The position numbers were made by a program, and so were the translations under genes. The notes beneath the pieces are model-generated. The model was not told the DNA's origin. It worked only from the letters and a program-made list of their open reading frames with translations, and did no database searches. From positions 8,917 through 72,916 of the forward strand of contig JBAWVX010000001.1 of the NCBI GenBank assembly GCA_037147075.1: a stretch of DNA of 64,000 nt, given 5' to 3'. The stretch is from a bacterium. GTDB lineage: Bacteria > Verrucomicrobiota > Verrucomicrobiia > Chthoniobacterales > Terrimicrobiaceae. Positions 846 to 49,607 of this stretch are shown here, in pieces. The first letter of the stretch is position 1, and the number at the start of each line of letters is the position of its first letter.

Positions 846-3800
846 ATGAAAGATCTAAATTTTAACGAATCCGTTGGTGAAGTCAAACCTATTGGTTTTG
901 ATGAGGTGGCAATTACAGTAGCATCCCCTGACTCCATGCGCGGTTGGAGCAAGGGTGAGGTCAAAAATCCCGAGACCATCAACTATCGCACATTCAAACC
1001 GGAAAAAGGCGGACTGTTCTGCGAGCGAATTTTTGGCCCAACCCGTGACTGGGAGTGCTCTTGCGGAAAATACAAACGCATTAAGCACAAGGGGGTTATC
1101 TGTGACCGCTGTGGCGTTGAGGTGACCCTTTCTCGCGTTCGGCGTGAACGAATGGGTCACATCGATCTCGCTGTGCCCGTTTCGCACATCTGGTTCTACA
1201 AGTGCATGCCTTCGAGGTTGGGTTTGATGCTTGATATGACTTCCCGTGCTTTGGAGCGCGTTATTTATTACGAGGACTTCATTGTGATCGACCCAGGCAG
1301 CACTCCTCTTGAGAAGTGTCAACTCCTGACGGAAGCAGAATACCGCGATGCAGAAGAGCAATATGGCGAGGAATTTACTGCTGGCATGGGTGCGGAAGCC
1401 ATTCAAAAAATTCTTGCATCCATGGACCTGGCTGCCCTTCAGCAGGAAATTGAGGAAACCATGGGCTCGACCCGCAGCAAGCAACTCCGTAAGAAACTGG
1501 CCAAACGTCTGAAGCTTGTTCAGGGTTTTGCTGAGTCGAACACGCGACCTGAATGGATGATTTTGAATGTTCTTCCCGTGATTCCACCCGATCTACGTCC
1601 GCTGGTCCCGCTGGAGGGCGGTCGTTTTGCAACTTCCGATCTGAATGACCTTTACCGGCGTGTCATCAACCGCAACAATCGTCTCAGGACCTTGTTGCAG
1701 CTCAAAACTCCTGAAGTCATCATCCGAAACGAGAAGCGTATGCTTCAAGAGTCGGTGGACGCTCTTTTTGACAATGGTCGCCATGGTCGCGCCGTCACTG
1801 GAGCGGCTAACCGTCCTCTCAAGTCTCTCAGCGACATGCTTAAAGGTAAGGGCGGGCGCTTCCGTCAAAACCTGCTTGGCAAGCGCGTCGATTATTCTGG
1901 TCGCTCAGTCATCGTTATCGGACCCGAACTCAAGCTCAATCAGTGTGGCTTGCCAAAGAAGATGGCCCTCGTCCTTTTCGAGCCATTCATCATTCGTCGC
2001 CTCAAGGAACTCGGATATGTTCACACTGTCCGTAGTGCCAAAAAACTGATTGAACGGCAAACCCCTGAGGTCTGGGATATCCTCGAGGAAGTGACGAAAG
2101 GCCATCCGGTTATGCTTAACCGCGCTCCGACCTTGCACCGTCTCTCGATTCAAGCGTTTGAGCCGATTTTGATTGAAGGCGAGGCGATTCGTGTCCACCC
2201 TCTCGTTTGCACGGCTTACAACGCAGACTTCGACGGTGACCAAATGGCCGTTCACGTTCCGCTTTCCGTTGAGGCGCAAATGGAAGCCCGGATGCTTATG
2301 TTGGCTCCGAATAACATTTTCTCGCCTTCCAGCGGCAAACCTATTACGACGCCTTCACAAGACATTCCTCTCGGTTGCTACTACCTCACTCAGAAACCAC
2401 GCGGTGAGGATGCAGATAAAACCAAGCGCATGCCTTTGTTTGAAACGGCTGACGAAGTGGAGCTTGCCCTCTCTGAGCGAGCCATTCGGACTCAAACTCG
2501 TATTCTCTTTAAAAATCCTGATTTTGGCATCGAAACAGTCTACGGTGATCCTTCCAAATCGGTGATCGAGACCACTGCCGGTCGCGTCATTTTCAATCGA
2601 ATCTGGCCTAAGGCCCTCGGGTTTTACAACAAAGTCTGCGGCAAGAAGCAGCTCTCCGATATCATCTGGCGTTGCTACAAAACCAGTGGTCAACAGGTTA
2701 CTGTGGAGACACTTGATCGTCTCAAAGAGCTTGGCTTTCGCGAGGCCACACGTGCAGGCGTTTCGATTGGCATCAATGACATGATGGTGCCAAAAGAGAA
2801 AGTGCAGCTCCTTGAAAAAGCCTACCGCGAAATCGCTGAGGTCGAAAAACAATACCGTCGAGGCATTATCACCGACGGTGAACGTAAAAACAAGGTGCAG
2901 GACATTTGGACTCACACCGGTGAGGAGATTGCAAATGCTCTTTTCCGCACTTTGGAATATAACGACAATCGTCGCGATATGAACCCCGTGTTCATGATGG
3001 TTGATTCCGGTGCCCGTGGTAACCGCACGCAGGTCAAGCAGCTTGCCGGTATGCGCGGTCAGATGGCCAAGCCCTCCGGTGAGATCATCGAGCAGCCGAT
3101 CACAGCCAATTTCCGCGAAGGACTGACCGTTCTCGAGTATTTCATCTCGGCCCACGGTGCACGCAAAGGTCTAGCTGACACAGCCCTCAAGACAGCAGAT
3201 TCGGGATACCTGACCCGCAAACTCGTGGATGCCGCGCAGGACGTTATTATCACGATTGATGATTGTCACACAGCCAATGGCATTGTGGTTCGCCCGATCT
3301 ACGAGGGCGACGAAGAAGTTGTCAGTCTCTCCACCCGTATTATCGGCCGCACAAGTTGCGAAACTGTGAAAGATCCCATCACAGGCAAAGCTGTTGTTAA
3401 AAAGGACCAGCTCGTCGATGAGGAAACCGCTGCGGCTCTGGAAAAAATCGGTCACGAGCAGCTTAAAATCCGCTCGGCTCTCACCTGCGAATCCCAGCGC
3501 GGCATTTGCATCAAGTGTTATGGCCGCAGCCTTGCGACCGGTGGAATGATCAAGATTGGCGAAGCCGTTGGTATCATTGCCGCCCAGTCGATTGGCGAAC
3601 CCGGCACCCAGCTCACGATGCGAACCTTCCATGTCGGTGGTGCTGCGAGCCAGACATTCAAGCAGCCTATCATCAAGGCCAAGAACGACGGCACGATACG
3701 CTTCAACGAACTCAAAGTCGTGGAAACCGTGGACAACACCTTCGTCGTGCTCAACAAAAACGGGACTGTCACGCTGCATGCGAAGGATGGCCGCGAACTG

Positions 3801-4955
3801 GAAAGCTACAACATCGTAGTGGGTTCCGTCATTTCCGTGGCCGATGGCAGCAGCGTCAAAAAAGGCGTAACGCTCGTGCAGTGGGATCCCTACAATGTTC
3901 CGATCATCACCGAGAAGGCCGGTCGCATCGAATTCCGCGACATGATTCCCGGTGTCACAATCCGCCAAGAGGTGGACGAGTCAACGGGCGTGCGTGGTAA
4001 TGTTGTGATCGAACACAAGGAGGATCTCCACCCGCAAATCATTATCGTGGATGAGGCAAAAAGTCTTCTTGCCAGCTACTCGATTCCTGCTGGAGCCCAC
4101 ATCGAGGTGAAGGAAGGAGCCAAGGTTCCTGCTGGACAGCGTGTGGCCAGAACACCTCGCAAAATCGGCAAGACAAAAGACATCACCGGTGGCCTTCCAC
4201 GCGTCGCGGAGCTGTTCGAAGCCCGTCGTCCGAAGGACGCCTGCGACATCGCCAAAATTGACGGTGTTGTTGAAATCGGGGGCACAGTCCGTGCCAAGCG
4301 TCGCTTGATTGTTAAAGATACCGAGACTGGCGCCGAAGAGGAGCATCTCATCCCTCTCAACAAGCATATCATCGTCTTCAAGGGCGATCTCGTTAAAAAA
4401 GGTCAGCAACTCACCGAGGGCCCAGTCGTTCCTCATGAAATTCTTGACATCTGCGGACCTCAAGAACTCCAAGAGCACCTCCTCAACGAGGTGCAGGAGG
4501 TCTACCGCTTGCAGGGCGTCGAAATCAACGACAAGCACATCGAGATCATCGTTCGTCAAATGCTGCGGAAGGTGAAAATCACCGAGCAGGGCGATACCAG
4601 CCTCCTCTGGGGCGATCAAGTAGACCGCCTCGCTTTCGAAAAGGAAAATGAAGAGGTCATCGCTAAAGGCGGCAAACCAGCCGAAGCAAGTCCCGTTCTT
4701 TTGGGAATAACAAAGACCGCACTCGAGACCGACAGCTTTATTTCTGCAGCATCATTCCAAGACACCACGCGCGTCTTGACTGAAGCCGCAACTCTTGGCA
4801 GAGTCGACCGTCTTCGTGGTTTCAAAGAGAACGTTATCATGGGCCACCTGATACCCGCAGGCACCGGCTTTGAAACAAACCGCAAAATTGAAATCACACA
4901 AGTCGGCGACACTTTCGGAGCCGATAAAAAAGAATCACAAAAAGCCGCAAGCTAA
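846..4955 (+). CDS. rpoC: DNA-directed RNA polymerase subunit beta-prime
   Basis: 1369-aa ORF with Zn-finger [23 protein letters not shown] and catalytic [12 protein letters not shown] motif. Sits directly after rpoB. Confidence 0.98.
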
Positions 4956-4970
4956 TCCACCACCCATATC

Positions 4971-5720
4971 ATGTCAGAAGCCATAGCAAACCAACCTAGC
5001 GTCGAACTCATGACGGAACTTCTCGAGGCCGGCGTTCATTACGGGCACCAGACCAAGCGATGGAATCCCAAAATGCGCGATTACATCCTCGAAGAAAAAA
5101 ATTCGATCTACATCATCGACCTCGGGCTCACTGTCGAGCAAATCGAGAGCGCGACAAATTATCTCCGCGACCTCGTCCGAAATGGTGGGAAAGTTCTTTT
5201 TGTTGGAACCAAAAAACAAGCCCAAGGCGCCATTTCGGAGGCGGCCGAGGCCACAGGACAATTCTACGTCAACCAGCGTTGGCTGGGGGGGACCCTCACA
5301 AACCTCACCACCATCCGTCGCAGTGTAGCCCGTCTTAAAGAAATTCAAGCGCTTGAGAAATCTCCGGCCTTTTCCAAGATCAACAAAGCCGAGGCCTCTT
5401 CCATCCGTCGAGAAGGTGCCAAGCTCCTCCACAACCTTGGTGGCATTGCCGAGATGTCCAAACTCCCAGACGTCATGATCGTCATTGACACCGTGCGTGA
5501 GGAAATTGCCGTGGCCGAAGCCAATCGCCTCGGTATCCCGGTCATCGCCATCGTCGACACGAACAGCAACCCGGAGAAAATCGCCTATCCGATCGCCGGA
5601 AACGACGATGCCATCCGCTCGATTCGCGTGGTTCTGTCCAAACTCGTCGAAGCCATCCTTGAAGGCAAAGGCTCTGGAGCCAAAGCCCGCAAACCCGAAC
5701 TCGCCGCCGTCTCCGAGTAA
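4971..5720 (+). CDS. rpsB: 30S ribosomal protein S2
   Basis: 249 aa with [13 protein letters not shown] and IVDTNSNP blocks typical of uS2. Followed by tsf. Confidence 0.96.
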
Positions 5721-5755
5721 ACAGCAATAGATCCGACCGATCTTAAAAAATTACC

Positions 5756-6355
5756 ATGTCCGAAATTTCAGCAAACTTAGTGAAAGAACTCCGCGAAAAA
5801 ACCAACGCGGGGATGATGGATTGCAAAAAAGCCCTCACCGAAGCCGGTGGCGATATCGCCGCAGCCGAGGAACTCCTGCGCAAAAAAGGTATCGCCAGCG
5901 CCGGCAAGAAGGCCTCCCGCACTGCGAAGGAAGGCACCATCGCCTCCTACATCCACCTCGCCGGCAAAGTGGGCGTTCTTGTCGAAATCAACTGCGAAAC
6001 CGACTTTGTCGCTAAAAACGAAATCTTCCGCGAGTTCGTCAAGGATGTGACTCTTCACATCGCCGCTTCGCACCCGCTCTATGTGAGCCGCGAGCAGGTT
6101 CCGGCCGATCTCATCGCCCGCGAACGCGACATCGCCGCCGCACAGGTTCAAGGCAAGCCGGCCAACATCGTGGAAAAAATCGTCGACGGCAAAATCGACA
6201 AATTCTACGGCACCATCTGCCTCCTCGAGCAACCCTTCATCAAAAATCCCGAGACGACAATCAAGGACCTCGTCTCGAGCAAAATCGCGGAACTCGGCGA
6301 AAATATCATCATTCGCCGCTTCACCCGCTACACCGTCGGCGAGGATATCGCCTGA
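5756..6355 (+). CDS. tsf: translation elongation factor Ts (short form)
   Basis: 199 aa with N-terminal [35 protein letters not shown] (UBA-like EF-Ts signature). Classical rpsB-tsf pairing. Confidence 0.95.
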
Positions 6356-6373
6356 TATTCCAGCTTGAAATTC

Positions 6374-6407
6374 GAGCCACGGTCTTCGGGCCGTGGCTCT
6401 TTTTTTT
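6374..6407 (+). terminator. Rho-independent terminator after tsf
   Basis: Perfect 9-bp stem GAGCCACGG (6374-6382) / CCGTGGCTC (6391-6399), 8-nt loop, then a run of 8 T (6400-6407). Begins 19 nt after the tsf stop. Confidence 0.75.
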
Positions 6408-6472
6408 GCCCGCAAATCCAGCTTCGAGCCGGATTGCGCCGCAGGGCCGAGACGGGTTACTCTCTGAACCGA

Positions 6473-7285
6473 ATGGATATTCGATTCACCAAAATGAACG
6501 GCGCGGGAAACGACTTCGTTGTCCTCGACAATCGCACACGGAGCCTTTCGCTGGACGGCGCAGCCATAGCGCGTCTGTGCGACCGCCACAGAGGAATCGG
6601 CGCGGATGGATTGCTGGCTGTGGAGCCGGCCGATGGCCAAGCGGATTTCCGCATGCGCTACTACAACAGCGACGGGGGAGAGGCCGAGATGTGTGGCAAC
6701 GGGGCGCGTTGCTTCGCAAGATTCGCCGCACGCCTCATGCCTGAAAAAACGGCCTCAGTCAGCTTCGAAACCCAGGCCGGCCTCATCACCGCCGCTCTCG
6801 AAGGGGATTTGGTGACGCTCGATATGGGGCGCCCGCAGGATCATCGCGAGGTGCAGTCACTCGAACTCGAGGGCTTCGCTCATCAGGTGCATTTCATCAA
6901 TACCGGCGTGCCCCATGCGGTCATCTTTGTTCCTGATGTCGAAAAAATCGATGTCCAATCGCTTGGTTCCGCTCTCCGTTGGCATGAGGCTTTCCGTCCC
7001 AAGGGCACGAACGCCAATTTCGCAGAGGTCGTCGGGGAGGACCTGCTCGTTCTGCGAACCTATGAACGCGGTGTCGAGGGCGAGACCCTGGCCTGCGGGA
7101 CCGGCGTCTGTGCCACCGCACTCCTTCACGCCGCGCAAACTGGGGCGGCATCCCCGATCCATGTCAAAGTTCGCGGTGGCGACACCCTGCGCGTCGATTT
7201 CGAAAAAAATACCGACGGCACATTCGCCGGAGCACGCCTCACCGGACCGGCGGATTTTGTTTTCGAGGGTGCCATTTCCCTGTAA
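6473..7285 (+). CDS. dapF: diaminopimelate epimerase
   Basis: Start placed at ATG 6473 (MDIRFTKMNGAGNDFVV); the upstream part of ORF 6365-7285 covers the tsf terminator. Two catalytic Cys blocks, MCGNGARC and LACGTGVCA. Confidence 0.92.
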   Translation: MDIRFTKMNGAGNDFVVLDNRTRSLSLDGAAIARLCDRHRGIGADGLLAVEPADGQADFRMRYYNSDGGEAEMCGNGARCFARFAARLMPEKTASVSFETQAGLITAALEGDLVTLDMGRPQDHREVQSLELEGFAHQVHFINTGVPHAVIFVPDVEKIDVQSLGSALRWHEAFRPKGTNANFAEVVGEDLLVLRTYERGVEGETLACGTGVCATALLHAAQTGAASPIHVKVRGGDTLRVDFEKNTDGTFAGARLTGPADFVFEGAISL

Positions 7286-7296
7286 CCATTCGAGCC

Positions 7297-8172
7297 ATGA
7301 CATTCGCAGGAGCACACACGGCCCTCGTCACGCCATTCCGTGACGGCCAATTCGACACCCAAGCCTTTCGCCAACTCATCGAGGAGCAAATTGCCGGCGG
7401 CATATCCGGCATTATTCCGGTTGGAACCACTGGAGAATCGCCCACGCTGGACCATGATGAGCATCTCAAGGTCATTGAGGTTGCCATTCAGGCTGCCAAC
7501 AAACGGTGTCTCGTCATTGCAGGCACAGGCTCGAATTCCACAGCCGAGGCCATCTCGCTCACGCAGGCGGCCGAGAAGGCTGGAGCGGATGCCGCCCTGC
7601 TCGTGGCTCCCTACTACAACAAGCCCAGCCAGGAAGGGCTCTACCGGCACTTCAAAGCCATTGCCGAAGCGGTCAAAATCCCGCTCGTCCTCTACAGCAT
7701 TCCCGGGCGTTGCGGCATCGAGATCGGCGTGGAGACCACGGCACGACTCGCCCGCGATTTCAAAAATATCGTCGCCATCAAGGAGGCCGGCGGGTCCGTC
7801 GAGCGGGTCAACCAGCTCGTTAATGCGCTCCCCGCCGGTTTTGAGATCCTCTCAGGGGATGATTCCCTCACTCTTCCCTTCCTGTCCGTGGGCGCTGTGG
7901 GCGTCATTAGCGTGGCTTCAAACATCATTCCCGCCGAAGTCTCGAGCATGGTCCGCCACTACCTCGCCGGCGAATCGTCGAAGGCCCTCTCCATACACAA
8001 AAAATACTATCCGCTCTTCAAGGATCTCTTCATCGAACCCAATCCCGTGCCCGCCAAGTTCGCTCTCGCCCGCCTCGGCAAAATGACAAGCGATGTGCGC
8101 CTGCCGCTTTGCGAGATGACGCCGGCCAATACCCAACGCCTCACGGAAACCCTCTCCCGCCTCGGTCTATGA
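7297..8172 (+). CDS. dapA: 4-hydroxy-tetrahydrodipicolinate synthase
   Basis: 291 aa with TALVTPF, GTTGESPTL, and active-site Lys context IVAIKEAGG. Confidence 0.94.
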   Translation: MTFAGAHTALVTPFRDGQFDTQAFRQLIEEQIAGGISGIIPVGTTGESPTLDHDEHLKVIEVAIQAANKRCLVIAGTGSNSTAEAISLTQAAEKAGADAALLVAPYYNKPSQEGLYRHFKAIAEAVKIPLVLYSIPGRCGIEIGVETTARLARDFKNIVAIKEAGGSVERVNQLVNALPAGFEILSGDDSLTLPFLSVGAVGVISVASNIIPAEVSSMVRHYLAGESSKALSIHKKYYPLFKDLFIEPNPVPAKFALARLGKMTSDVRLPLCEMTPANTQRLTETLSRLGL

Positions 8173-8909
8173 ATCCCACCCGTGTCATCATCAATGGATC
8201 CCGTGGACGCATGGGCCAGGCCCTTGTCGCCTGTGCCAACTCCGATGCCGCCTTCACCCTCGCCGCCGCCACTGATATCGGTGACGACCTCTCGGCTGCA
8301 CTCCCGTCGTGCGATGCGGTGATTGATTTTACTCACGCCACATCCACCATCTCCATTGCCGAAGCCTGCGCGGCGGCTGGAAAAATCCTTGTGATCGGCA
8401 CCACCGGCCACCATGTCGACGACCGCAACCGGATCAAGGAGCTGTCCCAAACCATTCCGATTGTCTTCGCGCCGAACTTCAGTGTGGGCGTGAACACCCT
8501 CTTTTGGCTGACCCGCAAGGCGGCGGAAATTCTCGGCCCCGACTTCGATCTCGAGGTTGTGGAAATGCACCACCGCCTCAAAAAGGACTCCCCGAGCGGA
8601 ACGGCGCGCCGACTGGCGGAAATTCTCGCCGATGTCCGTCAGCTCGAATACAGCAAGGATGTCATGCACGGCCGCGAAGGCATGGTGGGCGAGCGGACGA
8701 ATGGGGAAATCGGCATGCACGCGATTCGAGGCGGGGATGTCGTGGGCGACCATACGGTCATCTTTGCGAATATCGGCGAACGCGTCGAACTGACCCACAA
8801 GGCATCCAGCCGCGATACCTTCGCCAAGGGCGCTCTGCGCGCCGCCCGCTGGGCTCAAGGCCAAAAGCCGGGGCTCTACGACATGCAGGATGTCCTGGGC
8901 TTGAAATGA
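8169..8909 (+). CDS. dapB: 4-hydroxy-tetrahydrodipicolinate reductase
   Basis: ATG 8169 overlaps the dapA stop (ATGA). MNPTRVIINGSRGRMGQ dinucleotide fold and EMHHRLKKDSPSGTA signature. Confidence 0.92.
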   Translation: MNPTRVIINGSRGRMGQALVACANSDAAFTLAAATDIGDDLSAALPSCDAVIDFTHATSTISIAEACAAAGKILVIGTTGHHVDDRNRIKELSQTIPIVFAPNFSVGVNTLFWLTRKAAEILGPDFDLEVVEMHHRLKKDSPSGTARRLAEILADVRQLEYSKDVMHGREGMVGERTNGEIGMHAIRGGDVVGDHTVIFANIGERVELTHKASSRDTFAKGALRAARWAQGQKPGLYDMQDVLGLK

Positions 8910-18991: not shown

Positions 18992-19984
18992 TTATAAATC
19001 GCATGCGGCATCGATCGCTTCGAATTCCTCCGGGCTGATCCCGGCGTTTTGAAGAGCAGCGATGTTTTCGCGGATTTGATCAAGACGGCTGGCTCCGATG
19101 AGCACAGAGGTGACAGAGGGGCGATTAAGCAACCAGATGATGGCGAGTTGAGCCAAAGACTGACCACGACTTTCTGCGAGGGATGTCAACGCCCGGACGC
19201 GCCGCATTTTTTCCTCGGTGAGGTGGTCGGGTTTTAAAAAACCGTGCGGTTTGCTGGCCCGCGAGCATTTTTGAATGCCCTTCAGATAGCGATTCGTGAG
19301 CAGACCTTGGGCGAGCGGACTGAAGGCGATGCATCCCGCTCCGACATCAAGCAAGACTTTCGATAGACCGTCCTCCACCCAGCGATTGAACATATTGTAG
19401 GAAGGCTGATGGATCAGCAGCGGCACACCGGCGGCGGCGAGCAACTCGGCGGCGCGACGGGTCATGTCGGCCGGGTAGTTGGAAATCCCGGCGTAGAGCG
19501 CTTTTCCCGAGCGCACGGCTTGCACGAGTGCTCCCATGGTCTCCTCGAGCGGAGTCTCCATGTCGGGGCGGTGACTGTAAAAAACATCCACATAATCGAG
19601 GCCGAGGCGCTTTAGACTTTGATCGAGGCTGGAGAGAAGCGATTTTCTGGAGCCCCAGTCGCCGTAGGGTCCGGGCCACATGCGGTAGCCCGCCTTCGTG
19701 GAGATCACCATTTCATCGCGGTATGCGGAGAGATCCTTTTTCAAAATCCTCCCGAAAGTTTCTTCCGCGCTGCCCGACACAGGCCCGTAGTTGTTGGCGA
19801 GGTCGAAGTGCGTGATGCCCATGTCGAACGAACCGAGGATCATTTCCCGGCAGTTTTCGAAAACATCGACGCTGCCGAAATTATGCCACAGCCCGAGCGA
19901 GAGGGCGGGGAGAAGCAGCCCGCTCCTGCCGCACCGGCGGTATGGCATTTGATCGTATCGCGTGGAGGCGGGGATGTGGTTCAC
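18992..19984 (-). CDS. aldo-keto reductase, YghZ/Gpr-like
   Basis: Close to E. coli YghZ as I recall it (YRRCGRSGLLLPALSLGLWHNFG, GITHFDLANNYGP, LIHQPSYNMFNRW). Start placed at GTG 19984, which overlaps the upstream stop (GTGA) and reproduces the YghZ N-terminal length. The ORF is open to GTG 20011. Confidence 0.9.
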   Translation of the reverse strand: MNHIPASTRYDQMPYRRCGRSGLLLPALSLGLWHNFGSVDVFENCREMILGSFDMGITHFDLANNYGPVSGSAEETFGRILKKDLSAYRDEMVISTKAGYRMWPGPYGDWGSRKSLLSSLDQSLKRLGLDYVDVFYSHRPDMETPLEETMGALVQAVRSGKALYAGISNYPADMTRRAAELLAAAGVPLLIHQPSYNMFNRWVEDGLSKVLLDVGAGCIAFSPLAQGLLTNRYLKGIQKCSRASKPHGFLKPDHLTEEKMRRVRALTSLAESRGQSLAQLAIIWLLNRPSVTSVLIGASRLDQIRENIAALQNAGISPEEFEAIDAACDL

Positions 19985-21126
19985 AAGAGCGGCTTCTCGA
20001 AGAGACCCCACTCGCGGTCCGGCTCGCCGCCGACAATCTGGCAGACATCGATAATTTCGGCATTGGTGTCCTCAAGCCAGCCGAGCGTGGCGTCGGTGTG
20101 GTGCTTCTTGGCTTCCGAGAATTGTTCATGCACCAGCCAGGCGTGAAGACCCCTGTCCCGAAACTCCGGAATGACGCCGAGAACAGTCTGGCGGCAGGTT
20201 TTGATCTTCCGCGTTTTCATCAGGAAGAAAATATGGAGCAGCCGGAGCCAGTGGGGCGTGTTCTTGGCGGCGGTGAGGATTTCGTTGAAATTCGGCAGGG
20301 TGATGGCCACACCGGCATCGCGTCCCTTGGATTCGCCGATGAGCAAGAGCCTCGGATCGGCGATGGCGCGGATGTCCTCCGCCGAGTCGAGCAAATCCTC
20401 CATGCCGATCGGAACGAATCCCCAGTTTCTCTCCAGCGTGGCATTGTAAACCTCGCGCACGATTTTCAACTCCTCCTCGAGGCGCTTGAGTTGAAAGGGG
20501 CGGGTGGTGAGGTTGGCCCGTTTCTTGAGCCGTTCGACAATTCGCACAAACCTCTCCGGCGGGTTCAGTCGGTGCAGTGGAAGGTTCAGAGCATAGAGGG
20601 TTCGGACTTTTTGAAATCCCAAGCTCTCGACCAACGGAGCGTAGTAGGCGGGATTCCAAGGCAGGCCGATGACGGGTTGTTTCTCGAAGCCGTTGAGAAG
20701 AATCCCGCAATCGTCATTGATGCTGGGATTGTAGGGGCCTCGAATGGTCTCCAACCCCGCCTCGCGCAGGACCCTGGCGGCTTTTTCGAAGAGGGCTTGG
20801 ACAACAGCCGGCTCGTTGACGCAATCGAAGAAACCGAAAAATCCGGTTTTGTCCTTGTGATAGTCATTATGCGAACGGTTCACAACCGCCGCGATGCGGC
20901 CTATGGGACGCCCGCCGCGCTCGGCGATGAAGGCCGTGATCGTGCCGTGGCGGCGGTGAAAAGTGGAGCCGGGCGCGAGAAACTTCGCAACGCTACCGGG
21001 AAACGGCGGCACGAAGGCCGGATCCGTTTTGTGAATGATCTCCGCCGTTCTCTCGAACCGCGTCCTCTGAGACGGAGTCCGGCAGACGGAAATCGAAAAT
21101 GTTTTTGCGTCGTCCTGGATTGACAT
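19981..21126 (-). CDS. GNAT-fold N-acyltransferase-like protein (about 380 aa, function unknown)
   Basis: MSIQDDAKTFSISV..DPAFVPPF..GFFGFFDCV..GPYNPSINDDCGILLNGF..WNPAYYAPLVESLGFQK. This matches an uncharacterised long-GNAT family as I recall it. The first 116-120 codons of ORF 19981-21483 overlap the upstream gene and were dropped. ATG 21138 is an alternative start. Confidence 0.7.
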   Translation of the reverse strand: MSIQDDAKTFSISVCRTPSQRTRFERTAEIIHKTDPAFVPPFPGSVAKFLAPGSTFHRRHGTITAFIAERGGRPIGRIAAVVNRSHNDYHKDKTGFFGFFDCVNEPAVVQALFEKAARVLREAGLETIRGPYNPSINDDCGILLNGFEKQPVIGLPWNPAYYAPLVESLGFQKVRTLYALNLPLHRLNPPERFVRIVERLKKRANLTTRPFQLKRLEEELKIVREVYNATLERNWGFVPIGMEDLLDSAEDIRAIADPRLLLIGESKGRDAGVAITLPNFNEILTAAKNTPHWLRLLHIFFLMKTRKIKTCRQTVLGVIPEFRDRGLHAWLVHEQFSEAKKHHTDATLGWLEDTNAEIIDVCQIVGGEPDREWGLFEKPLL

Positions 21127-22333
21127 AGGCAGGGTCATCAAAAGTTCCCAATTCGCGGGCAAGTTTCTCGAAAATCTCAAGCACACGGTCGAGGTCGTCA
21201 TCCGTGTGGGTGGCCATGAAGCTGGTGCGAACGATGGCCTCGCCATAGCGCACGGCGGGGTAGATTGCGGGAGTGGCGAAGACGCCCTCCTCGAAGAGTC
21301 GTTGGGTGAAAACGAATGCCTTCGCCTCGCTGCCAATGAGGATTGGCACGATGGGCGTCTTGGTTTCGCCGATATTGAATCCGATGCGCTTGAAGCCCTC
21401 GTGCATCTTGCGGGTATTCCGCCATAGCTGCTCGATGCGCCACTCCTCCTCTTGCATGAGCTGGAGGGCTTTTTTGACACCACCCACGACGGCTGGAGCG
21501 AGGGCTGCGGTAAAAATCAAACACCGGGCGCGGTGTTTCAGATACTCGACCATCTGGGCATTGCCCGCGATGAAGCCCCCCATGGATCCGAGGGATTTCG
21601 AGAAGGTTCCCATGGTGATGTCCACCTGGTCTTGGAGGCCGAAATGATCCGATGTGCCGCGGCCTTGGCGACCGAGCACGCCGAGCGAGTGGGCCTCGTC
21701 CACATACACAAAAGCCCCGTGTCGCTTAGCGGTCGGGACGATTTCCGGCAGGTTCGCGATGTCTCCCGACATGCTGAAAACGCCGTCCAAGATCACCAGA
21801 CGGCCCGACTCCTCCGGCAGGCGTTTCAGGCGGTTCTCGAGTGAGGTCGCTGAGTTGTGACGAAAGGGGATGAGCTTTGCCGGCGCAAATTGGCATCCAT
21901 CGATAATGCTCGCGTGGTTCTCGCGGTCGCAGAGGATTGAATCCCCCTCCTCCGTGAGAGCGATGAGGGCGCCCTGGTTCGCAAAAAATCCGGTGGAGAA
22001 AAGAATTGCCGCCTCGCAGCCGAGGAAATCCGCCAGTGCCTCCTCAAGTTCCACATGCAGCTTGATGGTTCCATTCAGGAGCCTCGACCCCGTGCACCCG
22101 GCGCCGTAGAGCCGGGTCGCCTCGCAGGCGGCTTCCACCACGCGGGGATCCTGGGCCAGTCCAAGATAGTTGTTCGAGCCGATCATGATTTTGCGATCTC
22201 CGTCGCAAATGACATAATTCCCATGGGGCTCTTCGATGGACCGGAAGTAAGGATAGAAACCCTGAGCGCGCGCATCCGCGCTGTCCCTGTAGTCCCTGCA
22301 TTTCTGAAAGAGGTCTCTCGGTCCGTTAGCCAT
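20993..22333 (-). CDS. PLP-dependent alpha-oxoamine synthase, serine palmitoyltransferase-like
   Basis: FRHNSATSLENRLKRLPEESGRLVILDGVFSMSGDIANL, VDEAHSLGVLGRQGRG and PLP-lysine block GTFSKSLGSMGGF. The block pattern is closest to bacterial Spt as I remember it, but KBL or BioF cannot be excluded. ATG 22333; GTG 22360 also possible. Confidence 0.85.
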   Translation of the reverse strand: MANGPRDLFQKCRDYRDSADARAQGFYPYFRSIEEPHGNYVICDGDRKIMIGSNNYLGLAQDPRVVEAACEATRLYGAGCTGSRLLNGTIKLHVELEEALADFLGCEAAILFSTGFFANQGALIALTEEGDSILCDRENHASIIDGCQFAPAKLIPFRHNSATSLENRLKRLPEESGRLVILDGVFSMSGDIANLPEIVPTAKRHGAFVYVDEAHSLGVLGRQGRGTSDHFGLQDQVDITMGTFSKSLGSMGGFIAGNAQMVEYLKHRARCLIFTAALAPAVVGGVKKALQLMQEEEWRIEQLWRNTRKMHEGFKRIGFNIGETKTPIVPILIGSEAKAFVFTQRLFEEGVFATPAIYPAVRYGEAIVRTSFMATHTDDDLDRVLEIFEKLARELGTFDDPAYVNPGRRKNIFDFRLPDSVSEDAVRENGGDHSQNGSGLRAAVSR

Positions 22334-22454
22334 CAATTTGAACGTTGTGAAGCTTTGCACCTGCGTGGGAGAAGTAAATCATTTTCCCGTATCGTCAGGA
22401 GTGTCGAAACATTACGCTGCCTGCGGTTTCTCAGGTGCGAAAACTTCGTCTTGG

Positions 22455-23828
22455 TCATTTCAACGCATAAGAGCGCCCTCTTTCCGGAACGATCACCTCC
22501 GTCCCGCCAAGCTCACGGAAAAGTGACAACTGGAACCAGTCCAAAGCGGGGCGGTCACCATGAACGAGAATGATTTTCGAGGGGCGCAGAAGGATCGCAT
22601 AATTGCGAAGGGTTTCGCGGTTGGCATGTGCGCTGAAGCTGAACTCCCTCACATCACAACGCAACGGCACAGCCGGATGGTCCTTATCCAGCATGATCAC
22701 ATCTCCCGTAGAAGCTTTGCGGATGCGGCCTGATGGAGAGTCGGGATCGGAATAACCCACAAAAAACAAATGCTGCGAGGCGTCACCGAGAATTCGCCGC
22801 GCGAAAATATTCGAAAGCGTGTGCTCGCTCATCATGCCGCTGGATAGGGCATAAATCGCTTTCTTGCGTGGTTGGACGTTCAAAATTTCTCGCCCCGAAA
22901 GCACATAGGGGGCCAATTCCTGGAGGAGCTGCAACTCAGGGTGGTTGCGGACCGAGGTCTCAGCCATGGCATCGTAGGCTGTCGTCACCTTTACGCTCAG
23001 ACCTCCCACGTAGATCGGAATGCTCCCAATCTCGCCCCTTAGGCGCATCTGCCACAGCAGGGCCAGGATTTCCTGGGTCTTGCCAAGGGCGAAGACGGGA
23101 ATCGTGACTGTTCCCCCATCGGCGAGAACCTCTCGAACCGCCTGGGAGAAGCGTTCCTCTTCGTTGGCTCTGGAGAAACCCACCGGCGTCGGCGAGTCGC
23201 CCCGGGTGGTCTCCATGAGGAGGTAGTCGACGCCATCCTCAGGGAAGTCCGCGCCGCTCATGATCGTTTGGTTTTCAAAATTCACATCCCCCGTGTAGAA
23301 AAACGACCGCCCCTCGTATCGGATCAGCACGCCGACCGAACCGAGGATGTGTCCGGAGTGGTAGAATTCAAAGGTGACCTCGTGGTCATCGTTGCTGGCA
23401 TCACCGGCAAGATTCAGTCGTTGTCGCAGTCGGCAACGCACCCAGGCTTGTTGGCATAAATCGACTCCACGGTGGGTGTAGAGCGGGTATTCCATGAGCT
23501 GAAGCTCCTCGCGTTGGCGGGTCATCACGTTCACCGAATTGTGCAGCATGATGTCCGCAATGTTGGCCGTAGCCTCAGTCAGGAAAACAGCGCACTGCGG
23601 CTCGCGTCGCGTGAGAACTGGAAGCGAGCCAATGTGGTCTTGGTGGGCATGTGTGATGATGATGGCATCCACAGTGCCTTGAGGGATGGCATCAAAACAT
23701 GGAGTCGAACCGAGCCCATCGACTTTGGGGTCAGCCCCCGCATCGAGGATAATGTTTTTGCCACCGACTCGAAGCCAGTAGCTATTCGACCCTATACCTA
23801 GGTGTCTGGTGAGGTTGACGAAATCCAT
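22455..23828 (-). CDS. MBL-fold metallo-hydrolase of the beta-CASP type
   Basis: 457 aa with IIITHAHQDHIGSLP (HxHxDH) motif. The later HSGHILGS, ETTRG and FSAHA blocks resemble beta-CASP RNA/DNA-processing nucleases. Confidence 0.8.
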   Translation of the reverse strand: MDFVNLTRHLGIGSNSYWLRVGGKNIILDAGADPKVDGLGSTPCFDAIPQGTVDAIIITHAHQDHIGSLPVLTRREPQCAVFLTEATANIADIMLHNSVNVMTRQREELQLMEYPLYTHRGVDLCQQAWVRCRLRQRLNLAGDASNDDHEVTFEFYHSGHILGSVGVLIRYEGRSFFYTGDVNFENQTIMSGADFPEDGVDYLLMETTRGDSPTPVGFSRANEEERFSQAVREVLADGGTVTIPVFALGKTQEILALLWQMRLRGEIGSIPIYVGGLSVKVTTAYDAMAETSVRNHPELQLLQELAPYVLSGREILNVQPRKKAIYALSSGMMSEHTLSNIFARRILGDASQHLFFVGYSDPDSPSGRIRKASTGDVIMLDKDHPAVPLRCDVREFSFSAHANRETLRNYAILLRPSKIILVHGDRPALDWFQLSLFRELGGTEVIVPERGRSYALK

Positions 23829-23886: not shown

Positions 23887-24300
23887 CTACAAGCGACCTT
23901 CGTCCGCGTCGATGTAATCGAACATCGTCTGGATATCGTTGCGGTCCGCTAAGCCGCTTTCGATTTTTCGGCTGGCAAGCCTTTCGCTGAGGTCATCGTT
24001 CCAACCTCGTTTGGTCATGAAACTGTTCCAGATTTCAATTTGTTCCTCCGTCGGGCGTTGGCCTTTCTGAAAGCACCACCCGAGCAGATCCTCATCGGAA
24101 TCTCCCGCCAAGACCCGCTTTTTCAAATCCGAGTAATTCACCGAGAGAAATGAGGTTATCCGCACATCGAAGCCTTGGCCGAGATTTGCATGCAAGTCGG
24201 CGTGCAATTCCCCCGACGCCATGAGGCGAATCTTATCCACCATTCGCCCAAAATAAACGATTCCGCCGACATGTTCCCTGGGAGATCGAGGATATTTCAT
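23887..24300 (-). CDS. DUF5069-like small protein
   Basis: MKYPRSPREHVGGIVYFGRMVDKIRL.. resembles the DUF5069 family as I recall it. The ORF is open to ATG 24312. Confidence 0.65.
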   Translation of the reverse strand: MKYPRSPREHVGGIVYFGRMVDKIRLMASGELHADLHANLGQGFDVRITSFLSVNYSDLKKRVLAGDSDEDLLGWCFQKGQRPTEEQIEIWNSFMTKRGWNDDLSERLASRKIESGLADRNDIQTMFDYIDADEGRL

Positions 24301-24550
24301 ATTGCCCCCCATGGTGTCAGCTTAGCACCGTCTCGGAAAGACGAAAGTGGACCGCTTTGAAATGTTGAAGCCCGTCGCAACGAATGTTGCAACGGGCTTC
24401 TGTTCCCCCCAGAACAACCTCATAATAGTCGATCTCCAATTTCGCGCAACATTTTTTTCACGCGCGCCAAACAGCAAGCAGGATATTTTTCAAGCCATGG
24501 GAATCCGCTTTCAGCGTTTTTCGAGTCTCTCGCGGTGGAATTCCAAACTG

Positions 24551-24812: not shown

Positions 24813-25271
24813 TCAGTTACAAGCCTGTGTGGGAAACTGGGCCCAATCTTCGAATTCAAAAACTCCAAACACCGAGAAATCCATTGTGTTCGCCGTGGCG
24901 AGGCGCTCGATGCCACGCTCGTGGTAGGTGGCGGCGAGGTAGGTATCGAGAATGCGTTTGCGGCCGAGACAGAATTTTTCCATCCAGGTCCATGCCTGCT
25001 CCCAAGCGCGTCCACCGGGATGGCATTGAACGATCTCTGCGGACTCCCACCAGAAGCGGGATCTTTCCAAGGCCTGATTCATGGTCAGCGGCACCTTGAA
25101 ACGGCGCGGGTCAGTTGCCACATGCACAAATTCCTGCAGCACCTGTGGGGAAATTGCGAAGAGAACATGGCCTGACTGGCATGACGTGTGAATGAAGGCG
25201 CGGAGGGCTTCGTGGCCTGCTGCCTCCTTGATCTCGTGCGTTAGGAGCACCGTTGTGTCGAGTCCGATCAT
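24813..25271 (-). CDS. vapC: PIN-domain ribonuclease toxin (VapC-like)
   Basis: 152 aa. MIGLDTTVL (first acidic residue), QEF, ILDTYLAA and TANTMDF blocks are spaced as in PIN domains. The start overlaps the antitoxin stop by 4 nt. Confidence 0.8.
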   Translation of the reverse strand: MIGLDTTVLLTHEIKEAAGHEALRAFIHTSCQSGHVLFAISPQVLQEFVHVATDPRRFKVPLTMNQALERSRFWWESAEIVQCHPGGRAWEQAWTWMEKFCLGRKRILDTYLAATYHERGIERLATANTMDFSVFGVFEFEDWAQFPTQACN

Positions 25272-25507
25272 TGCCTGTCGAAAAAATCTTCCAACAAATC
25301 CTCACGCCCGGCCCAGGGGGTCAAAATCTGCCCCACGCTGGCTGCGGGGCCTGCCTCGGCGAGGGATGACTGTTTTTTGACAAGCGTTCTTCGATAAGCC
25401 TCCATGGCCTCGCGGATCAATTCGGAGGTCGAACGCCTCGCCTTGCGAGCTACTTTTTGAAACTCTCGGTAAACCGGATCATCTAAGTGAACTGTCACGG
25501 CTTTCAT
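25268..25507 (-). CDS. ribbon-helix-helix (CopG-like) antitoxin
   Basis: MKAVTVHLDDPVYREFQKVARKARRSTSELIREAMEAYRR is a typical RHH N-terminus. Immediately upstream of, and overlapping, vapC. ATG 25519 is an alternative start. Confidence 0.75.
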   Translation of the reverse strand: MKAVTVHLDDPVYREFQKVARKARRSTSELIREAMEAYRRTLVKKQSSLAEAGPAASVGQILTPWAGREDLLEDFFDRQ

Positions 25508-25548
25508 ATGTCGCAACATATGTCCATGTGTTATTTAACTCAACACGG

Positions 25549-27896: not shown

Positions 27897-28070
27897 AGGC
27901 CTTCAGCTTAGGCTTGCGGCGGACTCAGCAGAAATCCGATCCGATCGAATGTGACGAAATTGTCACAAAACTTTCTTTGGCTCTTCCGGGGCTTTTGTCG
28001 ATACAACCACCGACGGCATGAAGTCTCTGGCTCCATTCCGACATATACAACAACACATCTACTCAAAATC

Positions 28071-28973
28071 ATGATCAAACATAAACTCTCACTGTTTGCT
28101 TTGGTTGCCTTGGGCGTTGTGGCTTTTGCCACACCATCCCAAGCGGCCACTTACAGCGCAGGCGATCTCATCCTCGGTTTCCGGGTCACCGGCGGCACAG
28201 GTGCAGGGTCCGACTTGCTCGTTAACCTCGGTGCATCCACATCCTATCGTGACCTCAATGGCTCCAACCTTTGGAATATCACGAATATCGGAACTGACCT
28301 TGTTGCCACCTACGGCTCCAACTGGTATGATCGCACTGACCTCAGCTTCGGTATCGCGGGCGTCTACACCAATATTTCCGACGTAAATGGTGGAACGAAT
28401 AATAATGGTGATCCTGGCCAAACTCTCTACTTCACCAAATCCCGCACAGCTGCTGGAACTGTTGGTAGCGCGAGCAGCTCAGTCGCGAGCAACTACAGTA
28501 ATACAAACATGTCAACAGCCTCTGCGGGTATGCAGTCCCTCGGAGCCACCACATACGCTGGAGCAACGGCATCTTCTAACAATTCGAAGGTTGCCATTGT
28601 CTCTTCCTCAGGTGGAAGCAGCTGGACGACTTACACGAGCGGCGCATCTGACTTCGGCGTCATTTCAGGCGGTGTAGAGCAGGTCTTTGCTAGCGGAAGC
28701 TGGCAGGGTGGAACATTTGGTGCGGCCTCTAACGTGGAGGGGGCTTTGGACCTCTATCGCTATCTCCAGACAACCACTGGAGCCAGCCCATCAGGCACCG
28801 CAAAAACCGGTCTCTACCTTGGTTCTGTCGTGATTGATCAAACTGGTAACCTGAATGCGATCGTCAACTCCGCAGCTGTTCCTGAGCCATCCACATTTGC
28901 TATGGCAGGAATCGCCGCAATTGCGGCAGGCTTCGTTGCATACCGTCGCAAAAAAGTCTCCTCATCAAAATAA
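28071..28973 (+). CDS. PEP-CTERM sorting-domain secreted protein
   Basis: ATG 28071 gives signal peptide MIKHKLSLFALVALGVVAFATPSQA. The C-terminus VPEPSTFAMAGIAAIAAGFVAYRRKK has the PEP motif, a TM helix and a basic tail. Confidence 0.9.
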   Translation: MIKHKLSLFALVALGVVAFATPSQAATYSAGDLILGFRVTGGTGAGSDLLVNLGASTSYRDLNGSNLWNITNIGTDLVATYGSNWYDRTDLSFGIAGVYTNISDVNGGTNNNGDPGQTLYFTKSRTAAGTVGSASSSVASNYSNTNMSTASAGMQSLGATTYAGATASSNNSKVAIVSSSGGSSWTTYTSGASDFGVISGGVEQVFASGSWQGGTFGAASNVEGALDLYRYLQTTTGASPSGTAKTGLYLGSVVIDQTGNLNAIVNSAAVPEPSTFAMAGIAAIAAGFVAYRRKKVSSSK

Positions 28974-44086: not shown

Positions 44087-44131
44087 GGTTGTGAGATTTT
44101 TGGCAGAACTAACAGAATTTTAGGAAGTTTA

Positions 44132-44284
44132 GACAGGATGATCCGCCTACGGAAAGGCAACTCCGGCGGGACGGGTCAGGATTTTCAGGAGTGACAGGAT
44201 GGGCATGGTTTGTTTATATGCTTCAGCTTTTCTAGAGTTAAAACCTGTATTCCTCCTCTGTGTTCTCTGTGTCCTCCGTGGTTA
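44132..44284. repeat. intergenic repeat cluster upstream of tpsA
   Basis: GACAGGATGA (44132-44141), GTCAGGATTTTCAGGAGTGACAGGATGGG (44175-44203) and CCTCTGTGTTCTCTGTGTCCTCCGTGGTTA (44254-44284). The last resembles CCTCTGTGCTCTGTGTCCCCAGTGGTTA at 24751-24778. Confidence 0.7.
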
Positions 44285-44315
44285 ATAATTCTTTCGTGTG
44301 AATGACTAATTTCGG

Positions 44316-44380
44316 CGGTTTTTGGGTTTTGTTGAGGTTTGGTTTTGTGACGATTTTGTGACTTGCAAAATTATTTTTTC
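44316..44380. repeat. 65-nt gene-3'-flank repeat, copy downstream of the DUF1016 gene
   Basis: About 90% identical to 45611-45675, with a 31-nt perfect core TTTGGTTTTGTGACGATTTTGTGACTTGCAA (44338-44368 = 45634-45664). Both copies include the AAAAAATAA end of the preceding minus-strand gene. Confidence 0.85.
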
Positions 44381-45396
44381 TCTTCGGCTTCTTGGAGGGT
44401 TAATTCGATTTCGCGCCGAAGTTCTTCGCGATTTGGAAGGTAAAGCTGGTATTTTTGGACAAAAAGTTGGCTGTTCATTTGATAGGTGGCGTATTCAACG
44501 AGGAGTTCGTCTTTATTGCGTGTCAAAATGATGCCAATAGGAGGATTGTCGCCATCGGTATTTTCCTCATTCGCGAAATAGCCGAGATACGTATTCATCT
44601 GGCCTATGTCTTGATGTTGGACATCTTCCAACTTCAAGTCGATGAGAACAAAGCAACGAAGGATGCGGTGGTAGAAGACGAGATCGACGCGGTAGTGAAT
44701 GTTATTGATTGGAATCCGGTATTGCCTGCCGACGAATGTGAAGCCTTTTCCGAGTTCCAAGAGAAAGGGTTGGAGATGGTCGCAAAGGAGCGTTTCTAGA
44801 TCGCTCTCATTGATAACATACGGCTCTGGAATCTTAAGAAATTCAAAAACGAAAGGATCCCGCAGGATGTCAGCAGGATTCTGGACTGGTCTTCCTTCTT
44901 GGGCAAGGTGGAGAATTTGTTCCTTGTCCTTACCAGATGCAATGCGGAGAAAAAGGGATGATTTTTTTTGACGCTGAAGGTCTGGCACTGACCATCGTTC
45001 ACTGATGGCTTGTTGCTCGTAAAAACTGCGCTCTAGGCGGTCTTCGATGCGCAGGAGTTCGACATAATGGGACCAGCTCAATAGGTCAGAAGGTTTCTGA
45101 CTTATTGGGTAATTCAAATATAGAAGCCTCATGTAGATGAGGTTACTTCTGCTGAAGCCTTTTCCGTGTATCCTCCCGAGATCCTCACTGAGATTCTGAA
45201 TGAGAGCTTTGCCATACTCGGCTCGTATCTTACCGGCTTGCTCGAATTCGACGATATCGTGTCCAATTTTCCAGTAGGTTTCCAAAAGTTGTGCATTGGC
45301 CACCTTGTGGACGCGCACGCGAGCCGCCGTATAAGTCTCGGAAATACTGCCCAAGAGGTCTTGGTAGCGAGAGTCGAGTGTTATTTCGGAAGGCAT
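44371..45396 (-). CDS. DUF1016 / YhcG-like PD-(D/E)XK nuclease domain protein
   Basis: 341 aa. N-terminal YQDLLGSISETYTAARVRVHKVANAQLLETYWKIGHDIVE and C-terminal nuclease core RVDLVFYHRILRCFVLIDLKLEDVQHQDIGQMNTYL (D..D/ExK pattern) are typical of DUF1016. Visibly more AT-rich than its neighbours. Confidence 0.85.
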   Translation of the reverse strand: MPSEITLDSRYQDLLGSISETYTAARVRVHKVANAQLLETYWKIGHDIVEFEQAGKIRAEYGKALIQNLSEDLGRIHGKGFSRSNLIYMRLLYLNYPISQKPSDLLSWSHYVELLRIEDRLERSFYEQQAISERWSVPDLQRQKKSSLFLRIASGKDKEQILHLAQEGRPVQNPADILRDPFVFEFLKIPEPYVINESDLETLLCDHLQPFLLELGKGFTFVGRQYRIPINNIHYRVDLVFYHRILRCFVLIDLKLEDVQHQDIGQMNTYLGYFANEENTDGDNPPIGIILTRNKDELLVEYATYQMNSQLFVQKYQLYLPNREELRREIELTLQEAEEKK

Positions 45397-45432
45397 GGAA
45401 ATCGGATGGAGCGAAGCGGAATCAATTCAGTT

Positions 45433-45489
45433 TTAAGTCGCGGTGGGTGGAGCGGGGGTTGGTGAGGTGCGGTGGCCGGTTTTCAACAT
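45433..45489 (-). other. orphan duplicate of the tpsA start (18-codon ORF MLKTGHRTSPTPAPPTAT)
   Basis: The first 23 coding nt plus 2 upstream nt are identical to the real tpsA 5' end (MLKTGHRT). Lies 36 nt upstream of the DUF1016 start. Confidence 0.6.
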
Positions 45490-45507
45490 GGGGTGGTTTG
45501 AGTTTTA

Positions 45508-45581
45508 AGATTTAAGACTTAAGTTTTAAGTGGCGGTGGGTGGATCGGGATGACCTAATTGACTTTGGTGACCTTATTGAC
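45508..45581. repeat. leader repeat set upstream of the orphan tpsA start
   Basis: AAGATTTAAG (45508-45517), TTTTAAGTGGCGG (45524-45536), and 13-mers TGACCTAATTGAC (45551-45563) and TGACCTTATTGAC (45569-45581), 18 nt apart. The same set occurs at 46549-46609. Confidence 0.8.
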
Positions 45582-45610
45582 GGTGGGTGGGTCGTGAAGG
45601 GTTATGATCG

Positions 45611-45675
45611 GCTGGTTTGGGGTTTGGTTGAGATTTGGTTTTGTGACGATTTTGTGACTTGCAATTTTATTTTTT
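45611..45675. repeat. 65-nt gene-3'-flank repeat, copy downstream of the PPIase gene
   Basis: See 44316-44380. Contains two GTCACAAAA half-sites on the minus strand. Confidence 0.85.
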
Positions 45676-46545
45676 GTCGTCTGGTTTGAGGAGGGCGGGT
45701 AAGGCGATTTCGTCGAGGGTTATGGGGGCTTGGGCTTGGAGGCGCTGGAGGTAGGCTTGGCGGTTTAGGTTCTGGCGTTCGGTGCGGAGGGCGCGGATGA
45801 TTTGGGGTTTGATCTCTTCGAGGGTTGCGGTTCGGGGTTCCTGGATGTCGAGGATTTTGACGAAATAGAGTCCATCGCCGAGTTCGATGGGGCCGGCGGT
45901 GGCACCTTTGGCTAGGCCGGTGAGGGCTTTGCGGATGGCGGGTTGGATGGAGTCTTCGGGGAGGAGGCCGATCTCGCCTCCGTTGGCGGCGCTGCGGGGT
46001 TCGTCGCTGTTGGTTTTGGCCAGGGCGGCGAAGTCGCCGGATTTCACTTGTTTCGTGAGGGCGTCTGCTTTGGCTTTGGCCTTGGCGGGGTCGCTGCCGT
46101 TGGCGATGAAGATTTGGGCGAGGCGGTATTGCTTGGGAAGGTTGAGTTCGGCTTTGCGGGATTCGTAGACTTCCTTGACTTCGGAATCCGAGGGGAAGTC
46201 GGCTGGAACTTTGGTGACGGATTCGAGGTAGCTCTCGGAGATGGCGGCGTCGCGCACGCGGGCGAGGAGGGCTTGGGTTTCGGGCTTGTCGTCCCAGTCG
46301 GCGGCGGTGGCTTCTTTGAGGAGGACTTGCTGGAGAATGAGGGTTCGGACTGCTTGGCTGAGGGCGGCGGGGTTTTGCTTGAGTGCGGCGCGATCGGCTT
46401 CGCTGAGGCTGGAGAGGTAGGGCTGGATTTGCGCGACGGTGATGTCGCGGTCGCCAGCGCGTGCGATGACGGTGTCGGCTGCGTGTGCTGAGAGCGTCAT
46501 CGAAGCGGCGGCGAAGAGGGCGAGGGTGGTGGGGCGAAGTGGCAT
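45667..46545 (-). CDS. periplasmic parvulin-type peptidyl-prolyl isomerase (SurA/PpiD-like chaperone)
   Basis: 292 aa with signal peptide MPLRPTTLALFAAASMTLSAHA. Parvulin domain YRLAQIFI..VKSGDFAALAKTNSDEPRSAANGGEIGLL..GPIELGDGLYFVKI. Confidence 0.85.
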   Translation of the reverse strand: MPLRPTTLALFAAASMTLSAHAADTVIARAGDRDITVAQIQPYLSSLSEADRAALKQNPAALSQAVRTLILQQVLLKEATAADWDDKPETQALLARVRDAAISESYLESVTKVPADFPSDSEVKEVYESRKAELNLPKQYRLAQIFIANGSDPAKAKAKADALTKQVKSGDFAALAKTNSDEPRSAANGGEIGLLPEDSIQPAIRKALTGLAKGATAGPIELGDGLYFVKILDIQEPRTATLEEIKPQIIRALRTERQNLNRQAYLQRLQAQAPITLDEIALPALLKPDDKK

Positions 46546-46548
46546 GTG

Positions 46549-46609
46549 AAGATTTAAGTTTTTAAGTGGCGGGTTTGGTGACCTTATTGACTGGGTTGAC
46601 CTTGTTGAC
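46549..46609. repeat. leader repeat set upstream of the PPIase gene
   Basis: AAGATTTAAG (46549-46558), TTTTAAGTGGCGG (46560-46572), TGACCTTATTGAC (46579-46591) and TGACCTTGTTGAC (46597-46609), 18-nt period. An 18-nt perfect match TTTGGTGACCTTATTGAC is shared with 45564-45581. Confidence 0.8.
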
Positions 46610-46664
46610 GGGGACCTTTTTCCTGGGTAGTCCGTGGATTTTCATCCTTCTGAGTTCATCCTTT

Positions 46665-47300: not shown

Positions 47301-47307
47301 GTGGCTG

Positions 47308-49602: not shown

Positions 49603-49607
49603 GGGTA

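Follow-up and report, generated by a model that had tools for sequence, protein, structure and literature searches.

A probable spt-bcerS ceramide locus followed by an aldo-keto reductase gene, with cerR unlinked, in a Terrimicrobiaceae genome

The 64,000-nucleotide stretch of contig JBAWVX010000001.1 analysed here (hereafter the window; assembly GCA_037147075.1, Verrucomicrobiota, Terrimicrobiaceae) carries on its minus strand, at 18992-22360, three open reading frames (ORFs) in the same direction with overlapping ends, namely an alpha-oxoamine synthase (AOS) gene related to serine palmitoyltransferase (Spt), a gene of the bacterial ceramide synthase (bCerS) family and an aldo-keto reductase (AKR) gene. 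We consider it probable that this locus encodes the first two enzymes, Spt and bCerS, of the known bacterial ceramide pathway, that the ketoreductase CerR is encoded by an unlinked gene and that the AKR is a passenger. A first-pass annotation had read the three genes as a non-canonical pathway; given, among other results, the presence of a CerR orthologue on another contig of the same genome (C19), the canonical pathway is preferred instead.

The gene arrangement described in that annotation is correct, in that all three ORFs lie on the minus strand, the AKR start overlaps the bCerS stop and the 3' end of the synthase gene runs into the 5' end of bcerS in a different frame (Table 1). At the GTGA junction the in-frame AKR GTG at 19984 overlaps the TGA stop of bCerS at 19983-19981. 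The AKR ORF is also open from a GTG at 20011 (18992-20011), and the start at 19984 agrees with where E. coli Gpr and the orthologues in two related loci, L010 and L011, begin; in these loci the same junction reads TGATG. For the synthase, the ATG at 22333 gives a product of 446 aa, the length found in relatives, and is the likely translation start; the bCerS-family gene has an alternative ATG at 21126. The synthase catalytic domain extends to around residue 405 (about 21145), after which the ORF continues for some 50 codons as a tail, the distal part of which (NGSGLRAAVSR, then the stop codon) is the other reading frame of the conserved bCerS motif DPAFVPPFPGS. Of 16 relatives, 11 have an spt/bcerS overlap of exactly 146 nt, with identities as low as 73% for Spt and 47% for bCerS. 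In locus L016 (9760-10110) a tandem duplication undid this overlap: the Spt tail still carries, in its other frame, a decayed bCerS-like N-terminus, after which comes the real bCerS start. A promoter and terminator scan of the region gave nothing above chance, the count of promoter matches being no higher than in shuffled sequence.

Table 1. Features of the spt-bcerS-AKR locus (window coordinates)
Feature	Coordinates	Strand	Remarks
spt-like alpha-oxoamine synthase	20993..22360	minus	455 aa from the first GTG (22360)
bCerS-family (YghO / CC_1154-type) tandem-GNAT N-acyltransferase	19981..21138	minus	385 aa from ATG
Aldo-keto reductase (AKR), Gpr/YghZ orthologue	18992..19984	minus	GTG start overlapping the bCerS stop (GTGA)
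Overlap of spt tail and bCerS 5' end	20993..21138	minus	146 nt, out of frame
Weak sigma-70-like promoter match	22378..22407	minus	in the 94-nt gap 5' of spt; pointer only

The synthase contains the motifs on which its earlier comparison with Spt had been based (GTFSKSLG, FRHNS, LENRLKRLPEE and GVFSMSGDIANL), and that comparison is borne out by the PDB search and by the tree. Its motif blocks align with the pyridoxal phosphate (PLP)-lysine and neighbouring blocks of the S. paucimobilis and Sphingobacterium multivorum Spt enzymes, with NHASIIDG, VDEAHSLG and GTFSKSLG (PLP lysine, His and Asp-x-x-His blocks) matching column for column. The protein matches Pfam Aminotran_1_2 (E 2e-62), and its best NCBIfam model is the Spt of Bacteroidota type (CFB) with 495 bits, against 386-412 for the BioF/Kbl-related models, none of them reaching its equivalog cut-off. 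Its top PDB match is the S. multivorum Spt (400 bits, 48% identity), followed by the S. paucimobilis Spt and a Thermus BioF/Kbl enzyme (both about 310), E. coli KBL (261), cysteate acyltransferase (239), BioF (about 203-210), 5-aminolevulinate synthase (ALAS; 189) and CqsA (117). A maximum-likelihood tree was computed from 43 AOS sequences, and it places the synthase, with 100/99 support, in one clade with the Spt of E. coli BL21, S. multivorum and S. paucimobilis. This clade also takes in the AOS genes that adjoin GNAT-family genes across many phyla, and it excludes Kbl and BioF of E. coli, the Thermus enzyme and the second AOS of the genome; ALAS, CqsA and cysteate acyltransferase (SulA) were compared by PDB bit score only.

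The middle protein taken singly gave no match in Pfam or NCBIfam, and its PDB sequence search was uninformative. An exhaustive homologue search recovered 5376 relatives at E < 0.001, and of 80 diverse family members 66 matched PF00583 and 20 matched PF13480 (C-terminal half), while an NCBIfam scan of 80 members returned no ceramide-synthase model and weak generic GNAT matches only. The AlphaFold (AF2) model built on the family alignment (pLDDT 94.8, pTM 0.91) has tandem GNATs as its top Foldseek matches (TM 0.55-0.73), including the clavulanate-pathway tandem GNAT, MAB_4324, a glucosamine N-acetyltransferase and MshD, and through the family matches and this predicted structure the GNAT-like character of the protein is confirmed only indirectly. 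The link to ceramide synthesis comes from YghO. The family profile aligned to E. coli K-12 YghO in hhalign with a probability of 100% (E 8e-81, 364 columns), and BLASTP of the middle protein against BL21 YghO gave 25.7% identity over 358 aa (E 5e-46). The gene yghO/ECD_02850 is listed as the orthologue of Caulobacter CC_1154, the N-acyltransferase needed for dihydroceramide synthesis (Padilla-Gomez et al., PMC9386255), and in BL21 yghO adjoins genes for a fatty acyl-AMP ligase (FAAL), an NAD-dependent epimerase/dehydratase, an acyl carrier protein (ACP) and Spt. This spt cluster is missing from K-12, where IS5 borders yghO. Because of the YghO matches, the listing of YghO as CC_1154 orthologue and the BL21 cluster, the middle gene is, as judged from sequence homology, a member of the bCerS/YghO family and not merely an analogous acyltransferase, which upholds the proposal of the first-pass annotation that it is a GNAT-type lipid N-acyltransferase akin to bCerS. 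It is the sole homologue of the family in the genome. The two activities are also found in one chain, in a natural Spt-GNAT fusion from a metagenome (P0165, 780 aa) with the AOS at residues 57-396 and the tandem GNAT at 427-755.

In order to describe the neighbourhood of this family, related loci were retrieved with a 12-sequence GNAT-family alignment and one genome per species was kept, giving 80 loci from more than ten phyla (Verrucomicrobiota, Gemmatimonadota, Acidobacteriota, Nitrospirota, Myxococcota, Bdellovibrionota, Elusimicrobiota, Planctomycetota, Ignavibacteriota and others), in each of which 3 kb around the GNAT gene were inspected. An Spt and/or CerR homologue was within that distance in 56 loci: both an Spt-like AOS and a CerR homologue in 37, Spt only in 14 (two of them also with an AKR) and CerR only in five, with neither in the remaining 24. 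All-against-all clustering of the neighbouring ORFs of the 80 loci gave no recurrent family besides Spt, bCerS and CerR. The AKR adjoins the GNAT gene in two of the 80, L010 and L011, both from Terrimicrobiaceae metagenome-assembled genomes (MAGs) with a GNAT gene about 90% identical to that of the window.

A different arrangement was seen in class-level relatives, in which the place of the stand-alone Spt, ahead of a bCerS-family gene (about 31% identical), is taken by a KS-ACP-DH-AOS megasynthase of 1324 aa. In locus L108 (G264:C1:3919000-3931000) the two genes lie at 3645-7619 and 7628-8737, and the pairing is also found in genomes G171, G099 and G144. It suggests a polyketide-primed amino-ketone that is subsequently N-acylated; no close CerR was found in any of these four genomes.

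With E. coli CerR (ECD_02852) as query, the genome of the window (G000) yielded a 331-aa short-chain dehydrogenase/reductase (SDR) of the Epimerase family at C19:11310-12305. This protein is 42-55% identical to the products of the CerR genes located directly 3' of bCerS in related Verrucomicrobiota (L016-L027), and, when 12 genomes from the order and class were compared, orthologues of it were present in just the four with close Spt and bCerS homologues. It is an extended SDR (Pfam Epimerase), as expected of CerR, whereas the window AKR is an Aldo_ket_red TIM barrel. The orthologue is unlinked in G243, a genome of the same genus, directly follows bCerS in G216, and directly follows Spt in G005, where bCerS is on another contig. 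Four arrangements are thereby found in a single order (spt-bcerS-cerR; spt-cerR with bcerS apart; bcerS-cerR with spt apart; spt-bcerS with cerR apart), and the three ceramide genes shuffle freely within it. By homology, the genome of the window carries all three canonical ceramide genes, with cerR unlinked from spt-bcerS.

The pathway would run in the step order Spt, bCerS, CerR established by the Caulobacter work summarised in PMC11087976. The Spt-like PLP enzyme would condense serine with a long-chain acyl thioester to 3-ketosphinganine, the tandem-GNAT enzyme would N-acylate this product in the cytoplasm to oxo-ceramide, and the CerR-type extended SDR encoded on C19, and not the adjoining AKR, would reduce the keto group of oxo-ceramide. 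The AKR, inserted directly after bcerS, would be a cytoplasmic Gpr/YghZ-type reductase of small reactive aldehydes. Neither the vicinity of the locus nor a tblastn search gave a homologue of AcpR or AasR, the dedicated ACP and acyl-ACP synthetase; because of this and of the affinity of the synthase to the Bacteroidota-type Spt, acyl-CoA is suggested as the donor.

Several observations weigh against this interpretation. The synthase falls below the equivalog cut-offs of all three NCBIfam Spt models (CFB, 495 against 640; Beta, 401 against 500; Alpha, 355 against 670), so that its use of serine can be put forward only as a prediction; no control genome, not even Caulobacter, reached the cut-off of the Alpha model either. 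The membership of the middle gene in bCerS is drawn from the homology to YghO together with the literature statement on CC_1154. The C19 protein has no obvious signal peptide, unlike the Caulobacter CerR, which is reported as periplasmic (PMC11087976). Finally, the overlap of the AKR start with the bCerS stop is shared by all three genomes with the AKR beside bCerS, and because of it the AKR is probably co-expressed with bcerS; there is a slight chance that it has acquired a local, lineage-specific accessory role in the pathway.

The alternative that best survives, although we regard it as unlikely, is that serine is not the amino-acid substrate of the synthase and that the pair makes a non-ceramide product, such as a 1-deoxy or a glycine- or alanine-derived N-acyl amino-ketone lipid or signal. 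The sub-threshold Spt scores would fit with this, as would the pairing of distant family members with the megasynthase, and Arg378 of the S. paucimobilis Spt is not conserved in the synthase, though this residue is likewise absent from the genuine S. multivorum Spt. On the other hand, the synthase nests in a clade that holds three characterised Spt enzymes, and it co-occurs and co-localises with CerR across phyla as in the ceramide pathway, both of which argue for the ceramide reading.

Less credible still is the hypothesis that the AKR replaces CerR as the ketoreductase, so that the three genes would form a non-canonical route to a ceramide-like lipid, as the first-pass annotation had supposed. 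The genes are tightly packed, with the AKR start over the bCerS stop; the slot directly 3' of bCerS holds CerR in many relatives; and the AKR belongs to the NAD(P)H-dependent carbonyl reductases. However, the genome has kept its CerR orthologue on C19, and the AKR itself has the marks of a housekeeping enzyme. It matches Pfam Aldo_ket_red (E 7e-70) and, scoring 447.3, comes just short of the 448-bit threshold of NCBIfam PRK09912. Over 322 aa it shares 61% identity with the housekeeping E. coli Gpr/YghZ, and the catalytic Asp/Tyr/Lys/His blocks (FDLANNYGP, ISTKAGY, FYSHR) are identical in the two proteins. Its adjacency to the GNAT gene, as reported above, is confined to two of 80 loci, and G243 (same genus, 100% complete), G005 and G216 lack it but do have Spt, bCerS and CerR. 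In G264 a 65%-identical AKR copy lies about 1 Mb from the GNAT gene of that genome. The slot 3' of bcerS is moreover filled by unrelated housekeeping genes in other close relatives: purA and uppS in G243 and a 2-hydroxyacid dehydrogenase in L006, with no co-directional gene in L005 and CerR in more distant relatives. The claim that the AKR supplies the keto reduction in place of CerR is accordingly abandoned. An AKR recruited into the spt-bcerS operon as a second route beside CerR, whether it would reduce 3-ketosphinganine or oxo-ceramide in the cytoplasm or detoxify the reactive amino-ketone, is given equally little weight. The most economical reading is that a housekeeping Gpr/YghZ-type reductase was inserted behind bcerS in one narrow Terrimicrobiaceae lineage, and that the AKR, coupled to bcerS in translation, most likely rides along as a passenger, which would have no role in the pathway.

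The least tenable proposal, a housekeeping Kbl or BioF in a coincidental gene arrangement, could point to the equal identity of the synthase to E. coli Kbl and E. coli Spt (37% each), but we reject it and hold it to be very improbable in view of the tree, which places the synthase outside both enzymes with 100/99 support, of the bCerS adjacency conserved over more than ten phyla, and of a separate BioF-like AOS on contig C2 that is 41% identical to E. coli BioF.

As for the remainder of the window, a beta-CASP metallo-beta-lactamase RNase-like gene (22455-23828) and a DUF5069 gene (23887-24312), on the minus strand, lie directly upstream of spt, and the beta-CASP protein has sub-threshold NCBIfam matches to aCPSF1 and Cas14-type models. 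Both genes were rejected as pathway members, since they were seen upstream of spt, in the same order, in a single close relative only (L005). Two small minus-strand ORFs (24813-25271 and 25268-25519) overlap by 4 nt and form, by eye, a candidate toxin-antitoxin pair (PIN-like and ribbon-helix-helix-like). The ORF at 27951-28973 on the plus strand ends in a PEP-CTERM-like sorting signal (VPEPSTFAMAGIAAIAAGFVAYRRKK); such signals are typical of Verrucomicrobiota exoproteins. Finally, over some 6 kb (44001-50000) the GC skew is strongly positive (0.22-0.28) and the AT skew strongly negative (-0.18 to -0.25), both far stronger than in the remainder of the window.

In regards to known systems, the window AKR has the same length and identical catalytic-motif blocks as E. 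coli Gpr (YghZ, AKR14A1), an L-glyceraldehyde-3-phosphate / methylglyoxal reductase, but its translation, unlike that of Gpr, is coupled to a ceramide synthase gene, a linkage seen also in L010 and L011 but nowhere else. An oxidoreductase encoded next door, however tight the coupling, need not be the reductase of a pathway, and caution is called for when such genes are annotated.

The Spt-bCerS-CerR pathway is represented by CC_1162, CC_1154 and CC_1164 in Caulobacter crescentus and by spt, yghO and ECD_02852 in E. coli BL21. The genome of the window has the same three protein families, including a CerR of the same extended-SDR (Epimerase) family, and the order spt then bcerS with tight coupling matches that of many phyla. 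Unlike in the Caulobacter and BL21 systems, cerR is unlinked (C19), the spt tail overlaps bcerS by 146 nt and AcpR and AasR were not found near the locus or by tblastn. With 48% identity to S. multivorum, the window Spt also resembles the Bacteroidota type more closely than the proteobacterial one (37-42%). Within the Verrucomicrobiota, Spt-like proteins have been described in 22 MAGs from the Black Sea, often clustered with bCerS and CerR (PMC11334938). Both the proteins and their clustering are thus already known in the phylum, and the present locus adds a further member, which differs from the Black Sea MAGs in coming from a freshwater Terrimicrobiaceae genome, the split cerR and the AKR insertion being local details; with it, a freshwater Verrucomicrobiota lineage joins the predicted bacterial sphingolipid producers.

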